This document shows, piece by piece, positions 7,622 through 24,485 of a stretch of 64,000 nucleotides of DNA. Position numbers and translations under genes: made by a program. Every line of letters starts with the position of its first letter. The stretch's first letter is position 1. The notes beneath the pieces were generated by a model. That model worked only from the letters and a program-made list of their open reading frames with translations. It was not told the DNA's origin and made no database searches. The stretch comes from Thermoanaerobaculia bacterium (GTDB lineage Bacteria > Acidobacteriota > Thermoanaerobaculia > UBA5066), in NCBI GenBank assembly GCA_022071945.1, contig JAJVIN010000029.1, positions 390-64,389 of the forward strand. The letters run 5' to 3'.

Positions 7622-7653
7622 GTGAGCTCACCCCTCCCGCGTCCGTGGCGGGA

Positions 7654-10593
7654 TCAGCCGCGGCTGAAGACTTTGAAGTCCATGTCCTCGTAGGGGAAGA
7701 TGCAGTCAGCGGTCTCCAGCGGCGCGAGGTAGTCGGCATTCACACAGTCCTCGGCGACCTGGCGGAGGAGCTCCTTCGCCCGGTCGAGGTGCGTCACCAT
7801 CTGGACTTCCGAGTACCGCACGGCCTGTCCCGTGGAAATCAAGAAGCCCCAGTCGGAGGCACCCGCGAGGAAGAGAGAGCGTGCGGCCTGATTCAGGGCG
7901 CGGATCTTCAAGTCGTCGCGAGTGTCCCGGTACTGGGTGGCGAGGTCCGACATCCGCTGGCAGAGACGGAAGATGTGCCGGTAGAGCCACGTGTTCGGCT
8001 GGAAGTCGCGGCCCTCGACCCATGTCTGGTAGTAGTCCGACTTCCCCCACGAGCTCGCGCCCGGGACCAGCTTCTGGTGTCCCGGATGCTCGGAGAGGAA
8101 CTCTCCCGGAGTGACGGGCCGGACGACATCCTGGTCGTAGAGCATCTTGCGGAAGACCGTCTCGAGGAAGTACGGGCCCTCTTCCCACCAGTGGCCGAAG
8201 AGCTCGGCGTCGTAAGCCGAGACGATGCACGGCTTTCGGTGGAACTTCTCGAGCATGTGCGTCGCCTGGGCGCCGCGCTCGAAGACGAACTGTCCGGCCT
8301 GGATCTCCGCGGTTTCCTTGGCCCAAGACGGCATGTAGATCGGCTTGTGCCCGAGCCCGGTCCCGGGGTTGCCGATCCGGTGGTACTTGATACCGGAGTT
8401 CCGGCGCACGCCGGCCGTCCTGAAGTACTCAGGCACTTCATCCCAGGGCAGGTCGTAGCCGAGGTCGCGGTACCACTCCTTGTAGTTCGGGCTGCCCGGG
8501 TAACCGTGTTCGCGCGACCAGATCTTGGCCCGGGTCTCCTCGTCGATCCCGAAGAAGGCCACGCCCGAGGGCGAGATCACGGGCCGGGACGTCCCGAAGA
8601 AAGACCGGGTGTCGCCCTCGAGGACTCCCTTGCTGGACAGGAGCGTCCACCGGATTCCCTCGCGGGCCAGCGCCTCGTCCAGACCCGGAGTGAAGGCGTT
8701 CTCGGGCAGCCAGATCCCGCGCGGCCACCGGCCGAAGACTCGCAGGTACTGCCGGCAAGCGGTCTGGATCTGAGCCCTCAGCGTCTCGGGCTGGTGCATG
8801 TAGAGAGGCAGCAGGAAATGAGTGGCCGCGCAGGTGATGACCTCGAGCTTTCCGGCATTCTGGAAGTCCCGGTAGCCGCGCGTCAGGTCTCCCTCGTAGG
8901 CCTCGAAGACCCGCTTGGCGATCCAGAGCTTCTCGAGCGTCTCGTTGAGCGACTCGACTTGCGGCTTGCCCCACGAGCGGTCTCTCTCGCGCGTGGCCAG
9001 CCTTATGCACTCGTCGATGTGTCTCCAGGCCCGGGCTTTCAGATCCGGGTTTTGCATCATCGACAGGAGCGGGGGCGTGAGACTGACCGTCAGGCGGAAG
9101 TCCACCTTGTCCCGCTCGAGCTTCCACATCAAGTGGAGAAGCTGGGTGTAGACCGAGGTGACGGCCTCGAAGAACCACTGCTCCTCGAGCGACACCTCGT
9201 ACTCGGGATGACGGACGAACGGCAGGTGCTGGTGCAGGACGAGCGACCAGTAGCCCTTTTCCTCGGGCGCGGCGTGTGTGCGGCGCTTCCAGTACAGGTA
9301 CTGGTTCCAGCGCCACTGGTCCCCTCCGACCGGGATCTCGACGTTGTTTCCCTCGACGTAGGCGCTCGAGAAGTCCGCGTACTTCTCCGCGTTCTCGGTC
9401 TCCCCCCTCGGGACGAAAACCGCGTTGGAACGGGCGACCATCTCGAAGAAGGTCGTGCCGTGGGCCCGGAATCCGAGCTCCGCGACATAGCTCCGTCCGC
9501 TCTGTGCACGCACCCAGTAGTTGTTCTTGTCGATCAGGAAGTCGTCGACCTCGAAGAAGGAGTTGGCGTTGAACCCGTTGAAGTCGATTCCCGTGACGTC
9601 ATAGACCCTGAGGATGAGGGCGTTGTTCGACAGGAAATCCTGGCCGAACCGGTGGGCGAGGTGAGCGAGCGTCCCCTCGCTCAACTCCCAGATCACGAAG
9701 ACGCTCTTCGGGTCGCAGGGCACCAGGTAGAGATACGTCTCGTTGTACTTCTCCGTCAGGAACGGAAGCTCCTTGAGGATCTCGAGCCTCCGGTCGACTC
9801 CGGGCTCGCCTTCCGGCTCCTGAGTGGCATAGGCATTGGGCCGATCGAGCGGTGCGTGACCGTCGAAGGTCCCCGCCTCCTCCACGGCTGCGGCCTCGGC
9901 CTCGGCCGTGGCCTCGGGTTCCCCGGGCTCGGCAGGCCCGGTCGCGGCGCCGGGAGCGAAGGCTTCCTGGGACGGCTCGGGAACTGCCGCGGCCGCCTCG
10001 ACGACCGCGTCCGTGACAGCCTCCACAACGGCGGCCGGAGCAGCCTCGGCGACATCCGCCGGGGCGGCCTCGGCAACGGCGGCCGGGGCCTCGACCACCG
10101 GCACGGCGGCAGAAGCCTCGGGTGCGGCCTCCGCGGCCGCGGGCGGCTCGGCCTGCGTCGGGACCGCGGAAGCGGGCTTGGGCTTTTCCGCCGCGACGCG
10201 GGTGCTTGCGGGCTTGCGGGGAACGGGGACCGTCTTCTTGCCCGTTACCTTCTTCGGCAAGGCCGACTCGGGAGTGGGGCCGGCCTGGACCGTCACCGGC
10301 GGCTCGGCCACGGCCTTCTGCGGCACTGACTTCCTGACGGTCTTCTTCGGGGCCGTCTTGGCTTCGGGGGCGGCCTCTGCCCGGCTCTCGACGGGGGTCT
10401 GAGGTTCCGGAGCAGGCGTGACCACCGCGGCCTTTTTCGCAGTGGCCTTTTCCGCCGTGGTCTTCTTCGCCGCGGTCTTCGCCGCCGTCACGGCCTGTTC
10501 AGCGGGGGCGGGCCCTGCGACTGGTTTCGGCGCGGGCTTTGGTTCGTTCTGAGCAGCGGGCGCCCCGCCCGTCTTCTTCGTGGTCTTCTTCAT
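7654..10593 (-). CDS. GH57-family 1,4-alpha-glucan branching-enzyme-like protein with DUF4912 region and ~260-aa Ala/Pro-rich N-terminal extension
   Basis: 979 aa. GH57 catalytic core (HQHLPFV, SAYDAELFGHWWEEG) plus DUF1957-like C-terminal region. N-terminus is low-complexity AP-rich. 32 nt upstream of glgP on the same strand, so a likely operon. Confidence 0.75.
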   Translation of the reverse strand: MKKTTKKTGGAPAAQNEPKPAPKPVAGPAPAEQAVTAAKTAAKKTTAEKATAKKAAVVTPAPEPQTPVESRAEAAPEAKTAPKKTVRKSVPQKAVAEPPVTVQAGPTPESALPKKVTGKKTVPVPRKPASTRVAAEKPKPASAVPTQAEPPAAAEAAPEASAAVPVVEAPAAVAEAAPADVAEAAPAAVVEAVTDAVVEAAAAVPEPSQEAFAPGAATGPAEPGEPEATAEAEAAAVEEAGTFDGHAPLDRPNAYATQEPEGEPGVDRRLEILKELPFLTEKYNETYLYLVPCDPKSVFVIWELSEGTLAHLAHRFGQDFLSNNALILRVYDVTGIDFNGFNANSFFEVDDFLIDKNNYWVRAQSGRSYVAELGFRAHGTTFFEMVARSNAVFVPRGETENAEKYADFSSAYVEGNNVEIPVGGDQWRWNQYLYWKRRTHAAPEEKGYWSLVLHQHLPFVRHPEYEVSLEEQWFFEAVTSVYTQLLHLMWKLERDKVDFRLTVSLTPPLLSMMQNPDLKARAWRHIDECIRLATRERDRSWGKPQVESLNETLEKLWIAKRVFEAYEGDLTRGYRDFQNAGKLEVITCAATHFLLPLYMHQPETLRAQIQTACRQYLRVFGRWPRGIWLPENAFTPGLDEALAREGIRWTLLSSKGVLEGDTRSFFGTSRPVISPSGVAFFGIDEETRAKIWSREHGYPGSPNYKEWYRDLGYDLPWDEVPEYFRTAGVRRNSGIKYHRIGNPGTGLGHKPIYMPSWAKETAEIQAGQFVFERGAQATHMLEKFHRKPCIVSAYDAELFGHWWEEGPYFLETVFRKMLYDQDVVRPVTPGEFLSEHPGHQKLVPGASSWGKSDYYQTWVEGRDFQPNTWLYRHIFRLCQRMSDLATQYRDTRDDLKIRALNQAARSLFLAGASDWGFLISTGQAVRYSEVQMVTHLDRAKELLRQVAEDCVNADYLAPLETADCIFPYEDMDFKVFSRG

Positions 10594-12900: not shown

Positions 12901-12942
12901 CGCGCCAGCCGCAGTTGGCGCGCCAGCCGTTGTTGGCGCGCG
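12901..12942. repeat. Two tandem copies of palindromic motif CGCCAGCCG(NN)GTTGGCGCG between convergent genes (REP-like hairpins, probable bidirectional terminator)
   Basis: cgcgccagccgcagttggcgcg followed directly by ccagccgttgttggcgcgcg. Each forms a GCGCCA/TGGCGC stem. Lies between the TerC stop (12899) and norR stop (13023). Confidence 0.5.
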
Positions 12943-13022: not shown

Positions 13023-14600
13023 TCAGCGGCTGATCCCGAGCCTCTTGGCGAGGTGATGCTGGTTCGCCCGGTGCATCCCGAGATCCCTGGCCGCGGCGGC
13101 CCAGTTGCCCCCGTTTTTCGCGACCGCCTGTTCGATCAAGGTTCGCTCGAAGGCATCCACCCGCTCGCGCAAGGGAAGGGTCTCCGCGATTTCCGGCGCC
13201 GCCTCCACCTCTGGCGGACGAGGCAGCGAGGGGGCGACGTCGAGGTGTTCGGGCCCGACGGAAAGTGGCTGGCCGGACGGTTTCCCGGCTGCCGCGCGCA
13301 GGATGGCCCGGCTGATCACGTTCTCGAGTTCCCGGATGTTCCCGGGCCAGTCATTGGCGGAGAGACGAGCCCTGGCTTCCGCGGTCAACCGAATCGGGCC
13401 GAGCCCCAGTCGCCGGCGGGCCCCGTCGGCAAAGTGCGTCGCCAGGATCGGGATGTCCTCCCGTCTCTCGCGCAGGGGCGGCACCCGGATCGGATAGACC
13501 GCGAGCCGGTGATAGAGGTCCGCCCGGAAGCGGCCCCGCTCCACCTCTGACGGCAGGTCGCGGTTCGTCGCCGCGATGACCCGGATGTCGACCTTGTGGT
13601 GCCGGTCAGACCCGACCCGCTGGATCTCGCCCTGCTGCAGGGCCCTCAGGAGTTTGGGCTGCAGGACGAGCGGGAGTTCCCCGATCTCGTCGAGAAAGAG
13701 CGACCCTCCGTCCGCCGTCTCGAACTTGCCCGGCCGTTCCTTGACGGCGCCCGTGAAGGCTCCCGCGACGTGCCCGAACAGCTCACTCTCGGCCACCGAC
13801 TCCGGCAGGGCGGCGCAGTTCACGTGGATGAGCGCCTCCTCGTGCCTCCTCGAGCCCTCGTGGATGTGGCGGGCCACCAGCTCTTTGCCCACGCCGGTCT
13901 CCCCCGTGATCAGAACCGGGAGGTCCGAGCTGGCCACCAGAGCGATCTCGTCGAGGAGCCTCATCACGGCCGGACTGTTACCGAGGATGGCCGAGCCGCC
14001 CGACTCGCCCGCCGTCCGCTGGAGTTCCCGCGCCACCCGGGTGCTCGCCTCCGCTCGGCGCTCGAGCGACTCGATCAGGGTCGATGTCCGCAGCGCCGCC
14101 CCTGCCAGCGCCCCGAGGGTCGCCAGAAGCCTCGGGTCCAGAGCGTCGAAGGCCTCCGGGTCCAGGGAGTCTGCCGTGAGCGCCCCGACCACTTCGTCGC
14201 CAACCGTCAGCCGGCAGCCCAGACAGGCGTGAATCCGCTCGAGGGCGTGGGGATCGACCGTCAGCAGCCCGTCGAAGGGATCGGGCAGGAGCGTGTCCGG
14301 GGGAAACCGGATGGGCGAGGGCGCACTCAGGATCGCGTCGAGCCTCGGATGCCGGCTGCGAGGGTACCGCCTCTCGAGCGCCTCCGGTACCAGCCCGTGC
14401 GCCTCGAGCGGAACCAGTTCCTCTCCCGTCAGCCGCAGGAGGCAGGCCGCGTCGTAGGGGATGATCCGGCGCACCGCGGCCAGGAGCCGCGCATACCGGT
14501 CGTGCGCCGCCAGGGAGGCCGTCAGATCCCGGGCGATCTCGAGCAGGACCTCGAACGCATCCGTTTGTTGTGAAGATGACGACGATGTTGTCGATTCCAC
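13023..14600 (-). CDS. norR: sigma-54-dependent NO-responsive transcriptional activator (GAF-AAA+-Fis HTH), NorR-like
   Basis: 525 aa. GAF N-terminus, sigma-54 interaction domain (GETGVGKE, GAFTGA, ESELFGH), C-terminal HTH. Divergent from ric-norZ, the classic NorR arrangement. Confidence 0.8.
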   Translation of the reverse strand: MESTTSSSSSQQTDAFEVLLEIARDLTASLAAHDRYARLLAAVRRIIPYDAACLLRLTGEELVPLEAHGLVPEALERRYPRSRHPRLDAILSAPSPIRFPPDTLLPDPFDGLLTVDPHALERIHACLGCRLTVGDEVVGALTADSLDPEAFDALDPRLLATLGALAGAALRTSTLIESLERRAEASTRVARELQRTAGESGGSAILGNSPAVMRLLDEIALVASSDLPVLITGETGVGKELVARHIHEGSRRHEEALIHVNCAALPESVAESELFGHVAGAFTGAVKERPGKFETADGGSLFLDEIGELPLVLQPKLLRALQQGEIQRVGSDRHHKVDIRVIAATNRDLPSEVERGRFRADLYHRLAVYPIRVPPLRERREDIPILATHFADGARRRLGLGPIRLTAEARARLSANDWPGNIRELENVISRAILRAAAGKPSGQPLSVGPEHLDVAPSLPRPPEVEAAPEIAETLPLRERVDAFERTLIEQAVAKNGGNWAAAARDLGMHRANQHHLAKRLGISR

Positions 14601-14666
14601 GACAGCTCCTGTTGTCGATTTCCTAACACAGGAATGTAACTCACTGATTCAGATTGACTTCTTACG

Positions 14667-14681
14667 TGGCATCAGCCGTGC
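14667..14681 (+). promoter_or_regulatory. sigma-54 (-24/-12) promoter TGGCAT-N5-CGTGC upstream of ric
   Basis: tggcatcagccgtgc matches TGGCAC-N5-TTGC, with GG at 14668-9 and GC at 14680-1 at correct spacing. About 22 nt upstream of the ric ATG (14704). GGAGG at 14695-99. Confidence 0.5.
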
Positions 14682-14703: not shown

Positions 14704-15375
14704 ATGGAAACCTCGATCACACCGAACGCCACCCTCGCCGAACTCGCGGTCAGCCACGCGGCGGCTTCACGAGTCTTCCGCAACCACGGACTCGACTACT
14801 GCTGCCACGGCGGACGGCCGGTCTCGGTGGCCTGCGCGGAGCGAGGCCTCGACCCCGAGAAGGTCCTCGCCGAGATCGTCGCGGAGGGTGGGAACCAGTC
14901 CCCGGCGGAGCAGGGAACCGACCAGCCGCTCCCGGAGGTCATCTCCCGGCTCCTCGAGTGGTACCACCCTCGCCTTCGGGAGGAACTCCCGCTCCTCATC
15001 GAGCTGGCGAGAAAGGTCGAAGGACGTCACGCCGAGAAGACCACGTGCCCGCGCGGCCTGACCTCCCACCTGCAGGGGCTCACGGCTGAGCTGCTCGACC
15101 ACCTCGAGAAGGAGGAGACGACTCTCTTCCCGATGATCCTCTCCGGCCGTGGGAACCACGCGGCGGCCACGGTTCAGGCCCTCGAGCGCGAGCACCTCGA
15201 CGTCGCGACGGGACTCACCCGCACCCGGACCCTGACGGACAACTTCCAGCCCCCGGAAGAGGCGTGCCCGACGTGGCGCGCGCTCTACCTGCGGCTCGAC
15301 GCCTTCGAAGCAGAACTCATGGAGCACGTCCACCTCGAGAACCACATCCTCTTCCGCCGCGCGCTGTGCGCCTGA
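14704..15375 (+). CDS. ric: iron-sulfur cluster repair di-iron protein (RIC / YtfE / ScdA family)
   Basis: ATG at 14704 (METSITPNATLAELAV...). Hemerythrin-like His/Glu motifs (HGLDYCCHG, HHPRLREE, EHVHLENHILF). The longer ORF 14461.. overlaps norR and is spurious upstream of this ATG. Confidence 0.8.
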   Translation: METSITPNATLAELAVSHAAASRVFRNHGLDYCCHGGRPVSVACAERGLDPEKVLAEIVAEGGNQSPAEQGTDQPLPEVISRLLEWYHPRLREELPLLIELARKVEGRHAEKTTCPRGLTSHLQGLTAELLDHLEKEETTLFPMILSGRGNHAAATVQALEREHLDVATGLTRTRTLTDNFQPPEEACPTWRALYLRLDAFEAELMEHVHLENHILFRRALCA

Positions 15376-15394: not shown

Positions 15395-17749
15395 ATGAAC
15401 AACAACGCGACCCCCTCCTCCGACTCACGCCGCTGGGCGCTTCTCGGATTCACTCTCCTCATCGCCTTCATCATCCTCGGCTTCTTCGGCCGGGAGGTCT
15501 ACCGGAAAGCCCCGCCGATCCCGGAGCGCGTCGTGGCGAAGGACGGCACCGTCATCGCGACGAAGGACCGGATTCTGACCGGCCAGCAGGTCTGGCAGTC
15601 GGCTGGCGGCCAGCAGCTCGGCTCCATCTGGGGACACGGCGCCTACCAGGCTCCCGACTGGACGGCCGACTGGCTCCACCGCGAGTCGATGGCCCTACTC
15701 GACGTGTGGGCGGAGCGGGAGGACGGGACGGCCTATTCGAACCTGTCGGCTGACCGTGCCGGCGCTCTGCGCGCCCGGCTGGTGCGCGAGATGCGGACCA
15801 ACACGTGGGACGAGAAGACGGGTGACGTCACCATCGGGAACGAGCGGGCCGAAGCCATCCGCCGCGTGGCGGCGCACTACGATGGCCTCTATGGCGGCGC
15901 GCCCGAGTTCGCGAAGCTCCGCCAGGCCTACGCCATGGCGGAAACGACGATCCCCGACGGCTCGAGGCGCCAGGACCTCACCGCCTTCTTCTTCTGGACG
16001 AGCTGGTCCGCAACGACCGAGCGTCCCGGTTTGAACATCACCTACACGAACAACTGGCCGCACGAACCCCTCGTCGAAAACCACCCCTCCGGCGCCAATG
16101 TCGTCTGGTCGATGGTGAGCATCGTGCTGCTCCTGGCGGCCACCGGCGCCATCGTCTGGTGGAAGGCGTTCCGCCCCGCGGAAGAACCGGTCCCGGCGCC
16201 CCCGGCGTTCGATCCCCTCTCGACCATCACCGTGACGCCCTCGATGAAGGCGACCGCGAAGTACCTGGGTGCCGTCATCGGACTCTTTGTCGTGCAGGTG
16301 GGGCTCGGCGCCCTGACCGCGCACTACACGGTCGAGGGACAGGCTTTCTTCGGGCTTCCGCTTTCCGAGTGGCTTCCCTACTCCCTCTCGCGCACCTGGC
16401 ACATCCAGACCGGCGTCTTCTGGATCGCGACGGCGTTTCTGGCGGCCGGGCTCTTCCTGGCCCCGGTCATCGGGGGCCACGAGCCGAAGTACCAGCGTCT
16501 GGGCGTCAACGTTCTCTTCGGCGCTCTCCTGCTCGTCGTGGCGGGCTCGCTGGCGGGTGAGTGGTTCGCGATCCACCAGGTCCTGCCGTTGCCCCTCAGC
16601 TTCTGGTTCGGCCACCAGGGCTACGAGTACGTCGATCTCGGACGCGCCTGGCAGATCGCCCTCTTCGCCGGGCTCGTTCTGTGGCTGGTCCTGATGCTCC
16701 GGGCGCTCGCCCCGGCCCTGAAGCGGCACGACGACGCTCGTTCCAACGACGCTCGTTCCAACGAGGCTCGTTCCAACGAGGCTCGCTCGCTCGTCCTGAT
16801 GTTCACCGGGGCGACGGCCGCCATCGGCCTCCTCTACGGCGCGGGCTTCTTCTTCACCGCCAAGACGCATCTCTCCGTCATGGAGTACTGGCGCTGGTGG
16901 GTGGTCCACCTCTGGGTCGAGGGCTTCTTCGAGGTCTTCGCGACGGCCGCCATCGCTCTCCTGTTCGCCAGGCTCGGCCTCGTCGACAAGAAGCACGCGG
17001 GCGCGGCCGTCATCGCCTCCTCCGCGCTGTTCCTCTTCGCCGGAATCCCCGGGACGTTCCACCACCTCTACTTCAGCGGCACGCCGACCTCGATCCTGGC
17101 GGTCGGGGCGAGCTTCAGCGCTCTCGAGGTCGTGCCCTTGACGCTGATCGGAATCGAGGCGTTCCAGACGAGCCGGCTGCAGTCCGTCGCCCCGTGGATG
17201 GCACGGTACCGCTGGCCGATCCGCTTCTTCGTCGGGGTCGCGTTCTGGAACCTCGTCGGCGCCGGCGTCTTCGGGTTCCTCATCAACCCCCCCATCGCTC
17301 TCTACTACATGCAGGGCCTCAACACGACACCTGTTCACGCGCACACGGCTCTCTTCGGTGTCTACGGGCTCCTCTCCCTGGGACTCTGTCTCGTCGTGGC
17401 CCGCAAGCTCTCGGGCGAGCGCCCCTGGCGGGAAGGCGCCCTGAAGGCGGCCTTCTGGACGTTGAACATCGGTCTCGGATTGATGGTGGCCCTGAGTCTC
17501 CTTCCGATCGGCCTGGCGCAAACCTGGGCGAGCGTCGAGCACGGACTCTGGTACGCGAGGAGCGCGGACTTCATGCAGCTGGCATGGGTGCAGAACCTCC
17601 GCTGGCTCCGGATCGTCGGAGACTCGGTCTTCCTTGCGGGGGTCGCGTCTCTCGCCTGGTTCTTCATCGGTCTTCTGACCGGGTGGAGCTACGAGGAAGA
17701 GCAGCCGGTCACGGAACCAGACAGCGTTCTCCCCCTCGGTTCGAACTGA
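15395..17749 (+). CDS. norZ: quinol-dependent nitric oxide reductase (qNOR / NorZ, single-subunit NorB-like)
   Basis: 784 aa. N-terminal TM plus periplasmic extension, then 12-TM heme-copper-oxidase-like core with conserved His ligands (HLYFSG, HAHTALFGVYG). 19 nt after ric, with aaaggaaagg RBS. Confidence 0.8.
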   Translation: MNNNATPSSDSRRWALLGFTLLIAFIILGFFGREVYRKAPPIPERVVAKDGTVIATKDRILTGQQVWQSAGGQQLGSIWGHGAYQAPDWTADWLHRESMALLDVWAEREDGTAYSNLSADRAGALRARLVREMRTNTWDEKTGDVTIGNERAEAIRRVAAHYDGLYGGAPEFAKLRQAYAMAETTIPDGSRRQDLTAFFFWTSWSATTERPGLNITYTNNWPHEPLVENHPSGANVVWSMVSIVLLLAATGAIVWWKAFRPAEEPVPAPPAFDPLSTITVTPSMKATAKYLGAVIGLFVVQVGLGALTAHYTVEGQAFFGLPLSEWLPYSLSRTWHIQTGVFWIATAFLAAGLFLAPVIGGHEPKYQRLGVNVLFGALLLVVAGSLAGEWFAIHQVLPLPLSFWFGHQGYEYVDLGRAWQIALFAGLVLWLVLMLRALAPALKRHDDARSNDARSNEARSNEARSLVLMFTGATAAIGLLYGAGFFFTAKTHLSVMEYWRWWVVHLWVEGFFEVFATAAIALLFARLGLVDKKHAGAAVIASSALFLFAGIPGTFHHLYFSGTPTSILAVGASFSALEVVPLTLIGIEAFQTSRLQSVAPWMARYRWPIRFFVGVAFWNLVGAGVFGFLINPPIALYYMQGLNTTPVHAHTALFGVYGLLSLGLCLVVARKLSGERPWREGALKAAFWTLNIGLGLMVALSLLPIGLAQTWASVEHGLWYARSADFMQLAWVQNLRWLRIVGDSVFLAGVASLAWFFIGLLTGWSYEEEQPVTEPDSVLPLGSN
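16733..16792 (+). repeat. In-frame 15-nt x4 tandem repeat inside norZ (encodes DARSN-DARSN-EARSN-EARSL)
   Basis: gacgctcgttccaac x2, gaggctcgttccaac, gaggctcgctcgctc. Read directly from the sequence. Confidence 0.85.
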
Positions 17750-17847: not shown

Positions 17848-19581
17848 TTGATCAGCTCCCGTAGCCTGGCTCCGCTCGTCGCGCTCGCCCTCGTCTGCTC
17901 TCTTCGGTTGATGAGTTTGGGACGCGATCTGTGGGAATGGGATGAGATCCTGTTCGTGGATGCCGTGCAGCACGGAATCGACGTGCGCGTGAACCGGCCT
18001 CATCCTCCGGGTTACCCCGCCTTCGTCTCCCTTTCGCAGTTGGCGACACGCGCCGGAATGTCACCCTTCGAAGCCTCGCGTTCGGCCGGCGTGGCGGGAG
18101 GCATTCTGTCCGTCATCGGAGTGTATTGCCTGGCTCTCACACTCGGGACCTCGCGGGCGGGAAGTCTCTTCGCGGCCGTGGCCTATGCGCTGTTGCCGGC
18201 CGTGTGGCTGCACGGTGTCAGACCGCTCTCAGATCCGCCAGGCGCGGCAGCCTTCCTCTTTTCCATGACCTGCTTCCTCAGGAGCATGAAGGGGGGACGG
18301 GTGCCCGACCTGGCACTCGGGTTCGCCCTTCTCGCGGTGGGCTGCGGGCTGCGCCCCCAGACCGCCATCCTGCTCGTGCCGCTCGCGTCGATGAGTCTCC
18401 TCGAGGCCGTGCGCAGGAGAGGCCCGCGAAGTCTGGTCGCGCCCATCTTCATCATCGCAGTCCTGTCTTTTCTGTTGTACTGGCCAGTGCTCCAAGGCTC
18501 TGGGGGACTCCACGGCTACATTCAGGCGATCACGTCGCAGGGCAGATTTCTCCTCGCCGAGGACAGTCCCGGTCTGGGAGTTCTGTCACCGCGAGTATGG
18601 AAGAGATGGCTCTTCGATCCTTTCGGATCCGGACTCGTCGCGCTGGGATACTGGGGAGCAAGCATCCTGGCGTTCTTCCGTTCCCCTCGAGAGCTGAGGT
18701 TTCCGCTCTTGGCCGCATTTGGCCCCACGGCCGTTCTCTCCGTCCTCTTCCTGGGGTCACATGTCGCACCCCGATACGCCATCGGGCTCCTGGCGGCACC
18801 CTGCATCCTCACCGGGATGGCGCTGGACGGAGTCACCCCTCGGCCGTCGCGCCAATGGTGGGCCGCGACCGCGGCCACCTTGCTTCTGGCGGCTTCAGCC
18901 TCGATCTCGGTACCCGGCGTGATGGAAGTCCATGACAAGAGCAGTCCATCCGTGGCCTTGGTCGAAGCGCTAGAGGCCGACCCTCGCTTCGCGGGGAGGC
19001 CCGTCGTTGTCGATGAACCACTCGAGCTGCACGCAAGCCGTTCCGCGCTCCGGACCCGCCTGACCGTGATCCATGAGTGGGTGCCGCTGGCTCCAGAAAG
19101 AGACGCTCTGCTCGCCTTCGCGGATTACCGGCCCATCGGACTCCAGCCGGCGCGGGTCTTTGCCTTCAACTCCGCCGGGCTGGCTCGATTCTCCCGTGGC
19201 AGGTATATCGAGACGTCGATCTACGATGGCCGAGAGGGCGCTGCGATTCACATCCCGGAGGTCACAGGTCCGGGAGCGTGGAACGAGAGAGGGCAGATTG
19301 CCCGCCTCCGGAGTGGCTCGACCTTCACTCTCCGTTCTCCCGAGGGCCGGGCGCAGATCGCCTTCAAGGTCGAGGCAGAAAGGCGTGCGTCCGTGTCTCT
19401 CGCGACCCCCACGGAGAGCCGAACGCTCGAGTTCGCTCCCGGCTCCGTCCCCATGGAATTCACGGCTTCGCCGGACCCGGCGACATCGATCTCGTTGCGC
19501 ATGAGTGTTCTCACAGGCCAAGTCAGCCTGACCCAGTGGCGAATCACCCACAGTCGCACCGGCGTCACCGCCGGCAAGTGA
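17848..19581 (+). CDS. polytopic membrane protein, GT-C (PMT/ArnT-like) glycosyltransferase fold, putative
   Basis: 577 aa, many TM helices. EWDE-containing first loop and HPPGYP motif reminiscent of GT39/GT83. Soluble C-terminal domain. Starts at TTG with no clear RBS, so the start is uncertain. Confidence 0.5.
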   Translation: MISSRSLAPLVALALVCSLRLMSLGRDLWEWDEILFVDAVQHGIDVRVNRPHPPGYPAFVSLSQLATRAGMSPFEASRSAGVAGGILSVIGVYCLALTLGTSRAGSLFAAVAYALLPAVWLHGVRPLSDPPGAAAFLFSMTCFLRSMKGGRVPDLALGFALLAVGCGLRPQTAILLVPLASMSLLEAVRRRGPRSLVAPIFIIAVLSFLLYWPVLQGSGGLHGYIQAITSQGRFLLAEDSPGLGVLSPRVWKRWLFDPFGSGLVALGYWGASILAFFRSPRELRFPLLAAFGPTAVLSVLFLGSHVAPRYAIGLLAAPCILTGMALDGVTPRPSRQWWAATAATLLLAASASISVPGVMEVHDKSSPSVALVEALEADPRFAGRPVVVDEPLELHASRSALRTRLTVIHEWVPLAPERDALLAFADYRPIGLQPARVFAFNSAGLARFSRGRYIETSIYDGREGAAIHIPEVTGPGAWNERGQIARLRSGSTFTLRSPEGRAQIAFKVEAERRASVSLATPTESRTLEFAPGSVPMEFTASPDPATSISLRMSVLTGQVSLTQWRITHSRTGVTAGK

Positions 19582-19694: not shown

Positions 19695-22600
19695 ATGACA
19701 CCCTCCAGACGGTCAGCTCTCGCGATAGTGGCGGCTGTACTTCTTGGTCTCTTCCCAGAGGCCGGGACCGAAGCTCAGCCGGCATATCTCGTCAAGGACA
19801 TCAACGCCGCGCGGTACGCGGGCGGCTCGAGCGGCGAGTTGAGGAACTTCAAGACCGTGGGAGCGATGGCGTTCTTCTCGGCGCTCGACGAATACGGACA
19901 GGATGCCGTCTGGAGGTCCGACGGGACTCCCGGGGGCACCGTGGCCCTCTTCCGGGTCCCGAGGAGCTACAGGGGCCAGATCATCCAGTCGATCGAGCCG
20001 GTGGGGGATCGGGTCTACTTCGTCGCAAACGCCTCCGCGGCCGGCAGGGAGTTGTGGGTCACCGACGCAAGCCCCTCGGGAGCGCACCTTCTCGCGGACC
20101 TCACTCCGGGACCCTTCAGCACGACCTTCGGCGAGATTGCCGGCGCCAATGGCGAGCTCTACTTCACCATTACGGACTGGGACACATCGAGGCGTGGCCT
20201 GTGGCGCACGCAGGGACCGGACAGTGCTCCGATACAGCTCAGGGTGTCCTCGTTGCTGCCCAGCAAATTGGCCGAGGCAGGAGGAATGGTGTACTTCGCC
20301 GACAGCGACTCGCAGACGGGCAGCGAGCTGTGGGTCACGGATGGTTCGGTGGCCGGGACGCGGCTCGTCGCGGACCTCGTACCGGGCCCGGCGTCCTCGA
20401 GTCCCCAGATCATCCGTCGAGCCGGTGGCAAGATCTTCGTCGTGACGGGCGACAGCTCGTGGTGGGACCTCTGGTCCTTCCCGATCGGGACGTCCACGCC
20501 CGAGAAGCTGAAGGGCGTTCGCCACTTGTCGTCTTCTCTCCCGGGGCCGTCCCTCGGCCTCTACGGCACGTTCCTGCTCGCCGCCCCCGACGAGGATGGC
20601 CGCCGGCGGCTCTTCGCATCCGATGGCACCACCGCGGGAACGGAGGCGATCACCCCACCGATCCAATGGCGCGTGACGGCCATGGTCCAGGTGAGGTCGG
20701 TCGCCTTGGTCGAAACCGATGACGACATCCTGGTCACCGACGGCACGCCCGAGGGGACGGCCTTCTATCCTCCCGGCTCAGATGTCAGGGGCCTGACGTC
20801 GTGCGGCGAGACTGCGTTCGTGGTTCGATCGGATGGCACGATTTCACAGACAGAAGGTACACCCTCCGACGAACGCACCGTTCTTCCCCTCAACGCGGCG
20901 CCGTACTCCTCGTCGATTCGCGGGGCTGATTCCGTGCTGTATGTCAGCAGTCAGAATCCGCCCATGTTGTTCGCGTACTCGCCATCGAACAGCCAGTTCG
21001 TTCTGCTTCGAGCCTTCAATGCCGCGGGAACGGTGGACAGCGAGCCCCTGGGCGTCGTGGCCCACGGAAATCGCCTGCTCTACTCGGACGCCTACGGCCT
21101 CCATGCCGCCGGCCCTGAACCCGGCGACACCCCGCAGCTGCTATCGGTGCGTGACCTCTATTACCTCGGAACCGCCGGTCCTTCCCGAATTCCATGCTTC
21201 GGTTCGGCCTACGGCAATGTCCTGAACCTCTACCTTTCAAATGGGACGCCTGAGGGAACGGTTCCCTTTCTGTCCGTTCCGCTGACCGGTTTCCACGCCC
21301 AATCCCGGCCGCTCTCGGGAGCGAGCGCCGGTGATCAGCTCTTCTTTTCGACAAACGGGGACTGGAGCCCCACGACGCTCTGGAGAACCGACGGCACAGC
21401 GGCCGGCACGGTCGCCCTGCGCCAGTTCATGACGTCTGCCACGCTCACCTTTGCGGGTGCGGAGAGCCAGCTCTTCTTCATGGCCCGGAGCAGCACGGAG
21501 AATGGGCTCTGGCGAAGCGACGGGACCGCTGGGGGGACCTTCCGCTTTTTCGAGTTCGACTCCTCGCTCAATCCCTCGGACGTGAGCATCGCCGTCCTGG
21601 GCAACAAGCTCACATTCGTTCTGAGGCGTTCGCTCCCTTCCGGTTCGTACCAGGTCGAACTGTGGTCCTCGGACGGGACCCAGGACGGCACGAGGTTGAT
21701 CTCGAGCTTCTCTCCCAGTCCCTATTACATCCCGGGGCCCGGTCTCGTCCCCGGACCCGGCGGTGTCTTCTTCATCGCTTGGACTCCATCGGGTTATCGA
21801 CTTTTCCGAACCGACGGGACCTCCTCGGGAACCACGGAAGTCATTCCGGACTACGACTTGGCCTCGAGTTCGCTGCAGGCCGTTCTCACATTGGGCGGCA
21901 AGCTCCTTCTCCTCTCCGGCGGCAGAGTCCTGGCGAGCGACGGCACGGCGGCTGGAACGATCCAGATAGGTTTATACGGGAGTCCCGGAGGCAGGAACAC
22001 ACCCGTCGTCGCCGAGTTCCAGAATGGAATCGTCTACCCCGGATACTCCTCCGGTGAATACGAGCTTTTCTTCACGGACGGGACAGTGGCGGGCACGCGG
22101 CTCCTGCAGGACATCGCTCCGGACGGCGAGTCCTCCAACCCGGAGTGGTTCGTCAGGATCGGCACGAGGGTCTACTTCCTGGCGAAGACCCGCGAATTCG
22201 GACGCGAGCCATGGGTGCTGCCCGAGGGCTGCTCGGGGGGCGCCCCCGCTCCCATTCCCACGATCGAGACCGCGGCAGGCAGCACCCTGGGCTGCGGCGA
22301 TCTCGGATCCATCACGCTCACCGTGAACGGCCCGTACGCGCGCTTCCTCTGGAGCAACGGCGAGGCGGGAAACCAGGTCACCCTCGCCGCCGAGCCCGCG
22401 AGGATCGTGTCCGTCACCGGCATCGATGCGAGCGGCTGCGCGGGCGGCACCGCCTACCACTACATCCGGGTCCGCAACACGCCATCCGCCGTTCTGCCGA
22501 ACACCTCGCGATCGGTTTGCGCAGGAGGTTCCACGGAAATCCGGGCCTACCTGACCGGCACTCCACCCTGGCAGGTCCTCTGGTCGGATGGAGTGAAGCA

Positions 22601-24485
22601 GGATGCGAGCCTGAGCCCGGCCGTCCGCGACGTGTCTCCCGCCGTGACGACCCGCTACTCGGTGGCGGACGTGCGGGACGCACACTGCTTTGGCACCGGA
22701 TCGGGTTCCATCGAGGTTCAGGTCGCGGCCCCCGCCGAGATCACCGCACCCTCGCTCGCATGCGCCCATCAAACCGGCCTCGTCGCCTCTGCTCCTCCTC
22801 GTCTCTACTCGGCGACCTATTCCTGGTCGATCGAGAACGGCACCATCGTCGGATCGGCCTCGGAACCAACCGTGACCTTCAATACCCTGGGACCGGGCAC
22901 CCTGACACTGCGTCTCGTGCTGGTCCACGGAGGCTGTTCGACGCAGGTCGAGAGATCCGTCGAGGTCGGATTGATCCCGGGCGTCCCGGCTCCCGTCGCC
23001 CCCGCAAGTGGAGTCACGGGCGTGACCGAACCTCTCCTGTCATGGGAAGACCCGGCCGCCGGCGAATTCGACGTTCTCTTCGACACGGTCAATCCTCCGA
23101 GGGCTCGCGCCGCCATCGGTCTTCGAGCCAAAAAGTTCGCCCCGGCCGGCTGGCTCCCCGGCCAGACCTATTTCTGGCGCGTCGCCAAGCCCACTCCCTG
23201 CGGCCCCGTCTATTCGGAAGTCCGGCAGCTCACGACGAGCTCGTGCCCCTGGACGGGGGCCACGCCCGCCCTCGTATCGCCTGCTGACGGCACGAGCGGT
23301 CAGAATCCTTCCACCACGTTCGCCTGGACCCCGGTCACGGGAACCGGGCACTACGACCTTTACCTGGGGAGCTCGCTCGCAGGCCTGCGCCGGTACCGGA
23401 GCGTCCCGCCGGACACGACCTCGCTTCCCGTCTCCCTGAGCGCCCAGTCCGGGTACTTCTGGAAGGTCGTGGCCGTTCCCTCGTGCGGGAGTGCCGCCGC
23501 GGTATCCAGCCCCGTCGCCTCTCTTCGGACGGGGTCCTCCCAGCCCGCGCTCGCCTTCGTCTCTCCCCCGCTCTTCCAGAGGGATTCCGGCACTCGCCTG
23601 GCTGTTCTTGGCTCGGGTTTCGACAGCGCCGATAGCCTGCACGGGGAGGCCGAAGACGGACTGCTGCAGGGCGTTCTTCAGGGCACGGCTGACGCGAACC
23701 GCAGGGACCTCTGGATTCCCGCGAACCAGTCTCAGCGCGCCGGGTTCTACGACTTCTGGCTCGAGTCCGGCGGGCTTGAACGGGCACGGATCCCGATGGC
23801 CCTCACGGTTCAGGCGTTCGAGGACGTCCCCGCTTCGAGCTTCGCTTTTCTGTCGACATCACGGGCTGTCGAAAAGGGGTTCGTCGAATGGCCCGTCTCA
23901 TATCCTGGATCCCGGTTCGAGCCGGGAACTGTCGTGAGCAGAAGAGACGCCGCCTCGGCGCTGGCAAGCACCTACAAGTATCTCGTCGACGGAACGACGG
24001 AGCTCGAAGACGCCACGTGTACTCCCGCGGGCTCCTCGGGATCGACGGATTTCATCGACGTCAGCTGCTGGGACCCCGCATGGCTCGCCATTCACTGGCT
24101 CAAGACATGGGGGGTCACCCAGGGGGCGGGATGTCCCGAGGGCCCCTGTTTCAAACCCTACGATCCGATGGACCGTTCTCAGATGATCACGTTCTTGCTG
24201 CGGCTCAAGTTCGGACCTTCTCTTTCGGGCTTTCTCGATTCTCTCGGGACCGTCGATCCTGGCTGCGCGGCGGCATGGCCGTCGTGCTCGGGCTGGACGG
24301 ATCCCGGCCTGCAGGTCGAGACCTGGCCCCGGCGCGAGGCAAACCTGGGCTTCCAGACTCGTCTCACGGCGGGCTGCGCGGGAACGGCCGGGAATGGCCT
24401 CACCTTCTGCGCCAGTGCTCCCGTGACTCGCGATCAACTCGCCGAGTTCCTCGCACGGCTCTCCGGACTCGTACCGGCCCCATGA
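19695..24485 (+). CDS. giant secreted cell-surface protein: signal peptide, ELWxxDGT repeats, Ig-like Cys domains, Fn3-like domains, three C-terminal SLH domains
   Basis: 1596 aa. Repeated (E/G)LW(V/R)(T/S)DG(T/S)xxGT modules. Cys-pair Ig-like modules around residues 850-1100. C-terminus has SLH-type motifs FEDVPASSFAFLSTSRAVEKGFV, FIDVSCWDPAWLAIHWLKTWGVTQG, VTRDQLAEFLARL. Confidence 0.75.
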   Translation: MTPSRRSALAIVAAVLLGLFPEAGTEAQPAYLVKDINAARYAGGSSGELRNFKTVGAMAFFSALDEYGQDAVWRSDGTPGGTVALFRVPRSYRGQIIQSIEPVGDRVYFVANASAAGRELWVTDASPSGAHLLADLTPGPFSTTFGEIAGANGELYFTITDWDTSRRGLWRTQGPDSAPIQLRVSSLLPSKLAEAGGMVYFADSDSQTGSELWVTDGSVAGTRLVADLVPGPASSSPQIIRRAGGKIFVVTGDSSWWDLWSFPIGTSTPEKLKGVRHLSSSLPGPSLGLYGTFLLAAPDEDGRRRLFASDGTTAGTEAITPPIQWRVTAMVQVRSVALVETDDDILVTDGTPEGTAFYPPGSDVRGLTSCGETAFVVRSDGTISQTEGTPSDERTVLPLNAAPYSSSIRGADSVLYVSSQNPPMLFAYSPSNSQFVLLRAFNAAGTVDSEPLGVVAHGNRLLYSDAYGLHAAGPEPGDTPQLLSVRDLYYLGTAGPSRIPCFGSAYGNVLNLYLSNGTPEGTVPFLSVPLTGFHAQSRPLSGASAGDQLFFSTNGDWSPTTLWRTDGTAAGTVALRQFMTSATLTFAGAESQLFFMARSSTENGLWRSDGTAGGTFRFFEFDSSLNPSDVSIAVLGNKLTFVLRRSLPSGSYQVELWSSDGTQDGTRLISSFSPSPYYIPGPGLVPGPGGVFFIAWTPSGYRLFRTDGTSSGTTEVIPDYDLASSSLQAVLTLGGKLLLLSGGRVLASDGTAAGTIQIGLYGSPGGRNTPVVAEFQNGIVYPGYSSGEYELFFTDGTVAGTRLLQDIAPDGESSNPEWFVRIGTRVYFLAKTREFGREPWVLPEGCSGGAPAPIPTIETAAGSTLGCGDLGSITLTVNGPYARFLWSNGEAGNQVTLAAEPARIVSVTGIDASGCAGGTAYHYIRVRNTPSAVLPNTSRSVCAGGSTEIRAYLTGTPPWQVLWSDGVKQDASLSPAVRDVSPAVTTRYSVADVRDAHCFGTGSGSIEVQVAAPAEITAPSLACAHQTGLVASAPPRLYSATYSWSIENGTIVGSASEPTVTFNTLGPGTLTLRLVLVHGGCSTQVERSVEVGLIPGVPAPVAPASGVTGVTEPLLSWEDPAAGEFDVLFDTVNPPRARAAIGLRAKKFAPAGWLPGQTYFWRVAKPTPCGPVYSEVRQLTTSSCPWTGATPALVSPADGTSGQNPSTTFAWTPVTGTGHYDLYLGSSLAGLRRYRSVPPDTTSLPVSLSAQSGYFWKVVAVPSCGSAAAVSSPVASLRTGSSQPALAFVSPPLFQRDSGTRLAVLGSGFDSADSLHGEAEDGLLQGVLQGTADANRRDLWIPANQSQRAGFYDFWLESGGLERARIPMALTVQAFEDVPASSFAFLSTSRAVEKGFVEWPVSYPGSRFEPGTVVSRRDAASALASTYKYLVDGTTELEDATCTPAGSSGSTDFIDVSCWDPAWLAIHWLKTWGVTQGAGCPEGPCFKPYDPMDRSQMITFLLRLKFGPSLSGFLDSLGTVDPGCAAAWPSCSGWTDPGLQVETWPRREANLGFQTRLTAGCAGTAGNGLTFCASAPVTRDQLAEFLARLSGLVPAP

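Follow-up and report, generated by a model that had tools for sequence, protein, structure and literature searches.

The gene for a quinol-dependent nitric oxide reductase (qNOR) in an uncultured Thermoanaerobaculia population carries an in-frame tandem array of four 15-nucleotide units, and close relatives carry three or four of these units. We propose that the array is very probably a young coding minisatellite (VNTR) that arose by slipped-strand mispairing and that is tolerated in a cytoplasmic loop of the enzyme. It is an ordinary slippage-type length polymorphism in an unusual place, and it opens no new mechanism. (Throughout, "the window" is the whole 64,000-nucleotide stretch of DNA that we analyzed.)

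The array and its host gene

These features of the window are discussed below.

13023..14600, minus strand: gene for a NorR-like sigma-54 activator (GAF, AAA+ and HTH_8 by Pfam), divergently transcribed
14704..15375, plus strand: gene for a ScdA/YtfE-type di-iron (hemerythrin) repair protein (Pfam ScdA_N and Hemerythrin), directly 5' of norZ
15395..17749, plus strand: norZ, encoding qNOR, 784 amino acids (open reading frame, Pfam, and matches to qNOR structures)
16643..16723, plus strand: transmembrane helix (TMH) VI, which precedes the loop, residues 417–443 (AlphaFold2 helix 417–443 and helix counting)
16733-16747, 16748-16762, 16763-16777 and 16778-16792, plus strand: tandem array, four 15-nt units, encoding DARSN-DARSN-EARSN-EARSL
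16790..16855, plus strand: membrane part of TMH VII, residues 466–487 (AlphaFold2 helix 456–487)

The array (16733–16792) reads GACGCTCGTTCCAAC / GACGCTCGTTCCAAC / GAGGCTCGTTCCAAC / GAGGCTCGCTCGCTC, with the four units head-to-tail. The first two units have the same sequence, the third departs from them by one base, and the fourth shares 11 of its 15 bases with the third. This degenerate fourth unit is probably the ancestral copy. The array is in frame, since a codon of norZ starts at position 16733, and it encodes D447-ARSN, D452-ARSN, E457-ARSN and E462-ARSL (residues 447–466). Tandem Repeats Finder reports 3.7 copies of period 15 at 16731–16785, with 97% matches and a score of 96, which is the joint highest score in the window. 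Allowing one mismatch at most, the longest period-15 self-match in the window runs to 40 nt. When the window was simulated 100 times with a first-order Markov model, the maximum across all periods from 4 to 39 was just 16 nt (mean 14). This rules out chance or low complexity as the source of the array. The preliminary description had reported a fourfold in-frame repeat inside norZ, and both the repeat and the identity of the gene hold up. It had also termed the array microsatellite-like. The array is indeed a tandem repeat, but the size term was wrong: with 15-nt units, it is a minisatellite and not a microsatellite.

The norZ product has the architecture of a qNOR: one polypeptide in which a NorC-like domain at the N-terminus is joined to a NorB/COX1 core. 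Specifically, Pfam finds PF22085 (NorB_cytochrome_c-like; E = 2.4e-70) at residues 43–223 and PF00115 (COX1; E = 2.8e-58) at residues 286–744. The protein aligns end-to-end with the structures of qNOR from Alcaligenes/Achromobacter xylosoxidans (AxqNOR, E about 1e-283) and with the qNORs of Neisseria meningitidis (NmqNOR, 6e-251) and Geobacillus stearothermophilus (GsqNOR, 1e-147). The active-site motifs are intact and are identical to those of AxqNOR: HLWVEGFFE (with the FeB histidine and a glutamate), the HH pair, and HAH (heme ligand). Furthermore, H505, E509, E513, H556, H557, H648 and H650 are invariant columns in an alignment of 61 sequences. Judged by its domains and its motifs, the norZ product is plainly a qNOR. 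We also noticed that the same protein is labelled "hypothetical protein" in a public record (MCG3193641.1, from a Thermoanaerobaculia MAG).

We considered whether the array might belong to the pentapeptide-repeat proteins (PF00805), which have many tandem A(D/N)LXX repeats and form a beta-helix. However, the array has only four 5-residue units. Membership in this or another repeat-domain family also seems inconsistent with the Pfam results, which are the qNOR domains alone, and with the AlphaFold2 model, which has coil and helix at the array and no beta structure.

Copy number among close relatives

The protein cluster at 90% identity has four members: the window's protein (784 amino acids), two proteins of 779 amino acids, and a fragment that ends before the loop. 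At the DNA level, we compared the arrays of four genomes (units are given by their first residue).

Window: D-D-E-E, 4 units
L003 (Logan SRR32934022): D-D-E-E, 4 units
L002 (Logan SRR32799350): D-D-E, 3 units
L001 (GCA_023151375.1): D-E-E, 3 units

There are three alleles in these four genomes, which are 0.18–1.2% divergent over 14.8 kb (the pairwise figures are 0.18%, 0.49% and 1.2%). In the 3-unit relatives, the DNA of norZ is 98–99% identical to that of the window, and the arrays differ in length by exactly 15 nt. This one unit is the sole indel within norZ in the four genomes. Every allele encodes a full-length protein of 779 or 784 amino acids, with the frame kept. The expectation that whole units could be gained or lost without breaking the frame, which had been drawn from the window alone, is thus borne out by natural variants.

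Outside of the array, the genomes are nearly collinear. A 14.8-kb comparison of the window with L002 shows 72 substitutions and just one gap, namely the 15-nt unit in norZ. The same comparison with L003 shows 26 substitutions and no gap. Over 22 kb, the window and L001 have true indels only in tandem-repeat regions. These include a second variable array, with an intergenic 18-nt unit (12901–12941), of which the window has 2.3 copies and L001 has 3.3. Arrays of lower identity, such as the period-24 array at 9986–10089, do not vary between these two genomes.

The quartet ((window, L003), (L002, L001)) has 31 supporting sites, versus 6 and 4 for the other groupings. On this quartet, a minimum of two events is needed to explain the three alleles. 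Both could be indels of a unit; alternatively, since the two 3-unit alleles are one base apart in these four genomes, one event could be a point substitution (C/G) and the other an indel. A search of JGI metagenome contigs and of GTDB species genomes, using a flank-gap-flank pattern and a 23-nt core, found no further alleles. No two-unit allele was seen among the four genomes of the species. The more distant L004 has a norZ that is 77% identical at the DNA level, with a single copy of the unit. Overall, the array combines high-identity units, beyond what is expected by chance, with whole-unit differences between close relatives, which are the two properties by which a VNTR is recognized.

In comparisons of the window to its strain relatives, the dN/dS of norZ is 0.14–0.22, which argues that norZ is maintained by selection in the carriers of all three alleles. 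The gene neighborhood is kept as well: the pair of the ScdA/YtfE-type gene and norZ is also present in L001–L003 and in the distant L005, and the NorR-like activator is beside norZ in L001–L004.

The loop between helices VI and VII

The array is in a loop that is normally of constant length. In 113 of the 120 best homologs (98–69% identity), the motifs GHQGYEY and MEYWRWW are 82 residues apart; in the window's protein, they are 97 residues apart. The excess of 15 residues is three extra units. Homologs at 84% protein identity or less have a single unit, as in RRDDARSLV. Of 31 diverse qNORs (the representatives that have both of the anchors, with identity down to about 30%), 29 place GxQGxEx 89–92 residues from HLWVEG, versus 105 in the window. 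We also scanned for tandem peptide repeats (period 3–15, at least three copies). These were confined to the four proteins with the norZ array (three cluster members and the translation from the window itself, which was thus entered twice), and none were found in the 120 other proteins scanned (119 qNOR homologs and the truncated cluster member P0122).

These comparisons bear on what the preliminary description said about the loop. It held that copy-number change would alter the loop's length, and the window's loop is 15 residues above the usual. It considered the array to be unusual in this enzyme, and most other qNORs (113 of the 120 close homologs, 29 of the 31 diverse ones) indeed have a non-repetitive loop of fixed length. 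Finally, it raised the prospect that all orthologs might share a segment of the same length. Instead, the length differs, and among the qNORs examined, only the window and its close relatives have the array.

Five homologs from another clade (P0049, P0060, P0099, P0100 and P0105) have insertions of 14–28 residues at the same position in the loop, so this site accepts extra length. Like the array, these insertions are hydrophilic and of low complexity, but their sequences are unrelated to DARSN. We considered that they might also have originated by tandem duplication, but they have no current in-frame array at the DNA level: in the one homolog whose DNA we read, there was only a weak 7-nt repeat with 2.9 copies. 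By these comparisons, the TMH VI–VII loop is normally constant in length, yet it can accommodate extra residues.

Aligning the window's protein to AxqNOR places the array as an insertion in the loop R439-TPGGDKN-446. From helix counting, we infer that this is a cytoplasmic loop between TMH VI and TMH VII (corresponding to NorB helices IV and V). The count begins at the TMH II loop (Lys257–Glu259 and Arg255 in AxqNOR), which is described as the cytoplasmic site of proton entry (PMC6713497), and this puts the TMH VI–VII loop on the cytoplasmic side as well. Because the placement uses helix counting from the TMH II loop and published residue lists, it is a statement about topology, not a coordinate measurement.

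The AlphaFold2 model of the norZ product has a mean pLDDT of 79 and a pTM of 0.83. It has a helix at residues 417–443, a coil at 444–455, and another helix at 456–487. Units 1 and 2 are predicted to be flexible coil, and units 3 and 4 are predicted to be an N-terminal extension of helix VII, starting at residue 456. The pLDDT is below 50 at residues 446–459, and this low confidence would be consistent with disorder. The [D/E]ARSN modules are hydrophilic, net neutral and of low complexity, and each unit has an R-S dipeptide.

Structural papers assign several functional sites in qNOR (PMC10256718, PMC7201271). The mouth of the water channel is reported to lie on the TMH II loop and TMH X (Arg255, Trp251 and Glu572 in AxqNOR; Ser252, Thr255, His257, Glu259 and Ser579 in NmqNOR), and the dimer interface is reported to involve residues 113–122, 227–255 and 564–571. 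The loop of AxqNOR that is equivalent to the array (residues 439–446) is absent from these published lists for the channel mouth and the dimer interface. Term searches of the qNOR structure papers returned no mention of a role for the TMH VI–VII loop in the text that was covered. One feature alone lies nearby: in AxqNOR, a hydrophobic channel "around helix VII" that was predicted by CAVER is reported to open to the cytoplasm, with a semi-conserved lining that includes Ile423 and Phe466 (PMC10256718). These two residues sit on the helices to either side of the loop (VI and VII); a link from this channel to the array is a lead only.

Origin of the array and alternatives

We propose that an ancestral block of the loop, D-A-R-S-L, was duplicated in tandem, which would have led to three or four 15-nt units. 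Because the units are near-identical and adjacent, the nascent and template strands could misalign by one unit during replication, or else the units could recombine unequally. Each such event would add or remove exactly 15 nt, and because the unit is five codons, every change in copy number would keep the frame and leave the core of the enzyme intact. The extra residues would extend the TMH VI–VII loop, as flexible coil and as an N-terminal extension of helix VII. We expect such length changes to be tolerated because the loop appears to be cytoplasmic and is outside of the published channel mouth and dimer interface, and they would then segregate as strain-level polymorphism. The near-perfect identity of the units implies that the array expanded, or was homogenized, recently. 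Slippage or unequal recombination fits the unit-sized changes, the concentration of indels in arrays of high identity, and the single copy in distant relatives. A simple duplication of DARSL does not account for the Asn codon (AAC) at the junctions. Also, a DNA hairpin does not seem to drive the instability, as the array folds no better than shuffled sequences (z = -1.63). A 5-bp stem (CTCGT/ACGAG) across the junctions that precede both of the E units is not significant.

Both slippage as the molecular event and the neutrality of the extra residues are inferred. That these residues are tolerated rather than functional is most likely, since the segment is predicted to be disordered, is remote from the assigned sites, and another clade tolerates longer insertions. 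One observation that runs against neutrality is that the length of the loop is strongly conserved across the family, so the length could matter. Thus, we also considered that the length of the loop is adaptive and tunable, with copy number selected because it modulates the function of qNOR. This might work via the cytoplasmic opening of the helix VII channel, via access of protons or water, or via a docking or modification site, in which the R-S dipeptides would be recognized by another protein in the cytoplasm, for example the co-encoded YtfE/ScdA or a Ser/Thr kinase. Because most qNORs conserve the length of the loop, altering it might have consequences, and a second clade has independently expanded the same loop. 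Furthermore, all of the sampled strains have 3–4 units and none has reverted to 1–2, and the flanking helices contribute Ile423 and Phe466 to the CAVER channel that is reported to open to the cytoplasm (PMC10256718). However, the absence of short alleles from just four genomes is weak evidence, and the searched text of the qNOR structural papers gave no role for the loop. The very low model confidence is consistent with disorder, the unit is net neutral and of low complexity, and nothing ties the array to a partner protein; nor did we find any sign of a special function for the array. We consider an adaptive length to be unlikely. A broader version of this idea is that the loop is a selectable length dial, in which slippage variants tune the enzyme and the population keeps a standing pool of NO-reductase variants. 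The dial could act at the cytoplasmic mouth of the helix VII channel, on the packing of helices VI and VII, or on docking of YtfE/ScdA. This strikes us as quite unlikely.

Could the array or its variation in copy number be an artefact of assembly or sequencing? All of the sequences are from metagenome assemblies, and de Bruijn assemblers with short k can collapse tandem repeats. In particular, k-mers of 31 or less would leave alleles with three or more identical units ambiguous, and the Logan contigs could therefore under-call the larger copy numbers. But at 60 nt, the array is under the typical read length, and the 4-unit allele is found in two independent records (the NCBI MAG protein MCG3193641.1 and Logan SRR32934022). 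Two distinct 3-unit alleles come from still other sources (GCA_023151375.1 and SRR32799350). Also, at k of 21 or more, no k-mer occurs twice within any allele, and the k-mers across the junctions are specific to each one; the alleles are therefore not mis-assemblies of one another. An artefact therefore seems very improbable. We give even less credence to on/off switching of norZ by phase variation, with the array as a contingency locus, which we view as almost certainly wrong. The array is a tandem repeat inside a stress-related gene, and in Mycobacterium tuberculosis, switching of tandem-repeat copies in promoters has been tied to NO resistance (PMC12817950). However, this array is in the coding region and not in a promoter; its unit is a multiple of three, and all of the alleles are in frame and full-length. 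The array also has just 3–4 copies and has seen about two events over a total tree divergence of roughly 1.7%, which makes it far more stable than the classical contingency loci. We return to our proposal of a young, tolerated minisatellite.

The closest analogs of such an array are the coding VNTRs of other bacteria, which are used in MLVA typing and are generally attributed to slipped-strand mispairing or unequal recombination (PMC3899988). These share its near-identical head-to-tail units, a unit length that is a multiple of three, whole-unit differences between strains, and a preserved frame. But coding VNTRs are typically in surface, secreted or disordered proteins and have many copies, while the norZ array has only 3–4 copies and lies between two helices, in a short cytoplasmic loop of a respiratory core enzyme of the heme-copper oxidase family. 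Similarly, in variants of the KPC beta-lactamase, short in-frame tandem duplications lengthen a loop of an enzyme while the fold is kept (PMC12593533). Those insertions, of 3–6 bp and longer, affect loops of the active site; drugs select for them, and they alter kinetics (PMC12593533), whereas the loop with the norZ array is remote from the catalytic center. In contingency loci and in promoters with repeat variation (PMC12817950), slippage also alters copy number, so that close relatives differ. In those systems, the result is a frameshift or a change in promoter strength, and mutation rates are high; in contrast, the norZ array cannot cause a frameshift and appears to be moderately unstable.

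A loop of qNOR that is otherwise length-invariant from Acidobacteriota to Proteobacteria takes 10–15 extra residues under purifying selection. The array is in effect a natural tolerance experiment, which should help with the engineering of qNOR, such as in picking fusion sites like those of the BRIL fusions used for cryo-EM. It is also a strain marker for this uncultured Thermoanaerobaculia population. And it is a concrete case for gauging the mutation rate of a 15-nt array with 3–4 copies relative to that of point substitution: from two events on a total tree length of about 1.7%, we roughly estimate that the array mutates at about 100 times the per-site substitution rate, which would put its instability far below that of the classical contingency loci.

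The norZ product and insertions in another clade

The exact protein encoded at window 15395-17749 (norZ) is MCG3193641.1, which is publicly labelled "hypothetical protein". Despite this label, it is a full-length quinol-dependent NO reductase (qNOR). The three-unit allele (MCK6683460.1) is publicly labelled as a nitric-oxide reductase large subunit.

In qNOR homologues from another clade (P0049, P0060, P0099, P0100, and P0105), precisely this loop between TMH VI and VII has unrelated hydrophilic insertions of 14-28 residues. The DNA of one such insertion was read (positions 1836-1940 of the distant locus L005), and in this clade member the insertion is not a current tandem array. In L005 too, a ScdA/YtfE gene is directly upstream of the qNOR gene.

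Putative control elements upstream of norZ

Window 14586-14681: divergent norR / ytfE-norZ intergenic region, with a direct repeat and a sigma-54-like element
Window 14586-14596 and 14610-14620: 11-nt direct repeat TGTTGTCGATT
Window 14667-14681: sigma-54-like element TGGCAT-N5-GTGC

The sigma-54-like element has two mismatches to the consensus (TGGCAC-N5-TTGC), and the start codon of the ytfE-like gene is about 20 nt downstream of it. These elements are consistent with an NO-response operon under the control of NorR and sigma-54.

Other variable repeats

Window 12901-12941 (about 7489-7547 in L001, a near-identical relative's locus): copy-number-variable tandem repeat, 18-nt unit CGCGCCAGCCGCAGTTGG
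Window 10425-10488: overlapping tandem repeats of period 12/15/30, inside a long ORF (7654..10593, minus strand, or 7645..10329, plus strand)

Besides the 15-nt array in norZ, the 18-nt array is a second tandem repeat whose copy number varies (2.3 copies in the window versus 3.3 in L001). It lies between two convergent genes: a TerC-like gene, whose stop codon it directly follows, and the norR-like gene, whose 3' end is on the other side. Because every unit contains an inverted repeat (GCGCCA...TGGCGC), the array may be a reiterated terminator-like hairpin.

The period 12/15/30 cluster differs from L001 by several small, messy indels as well as substitutions, so it looks like a further repeat-associated variable segment.

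Large ORFs downstream of norZ

Window 17848-19581: ORF of 577 amino acids
Window 19695-24485: ORF of 1596 amino acids

The annotation precomputed for the relatives records no Pfam match for either ORF. Their synteny is kept in all three near-identical relatives (L001-L003).
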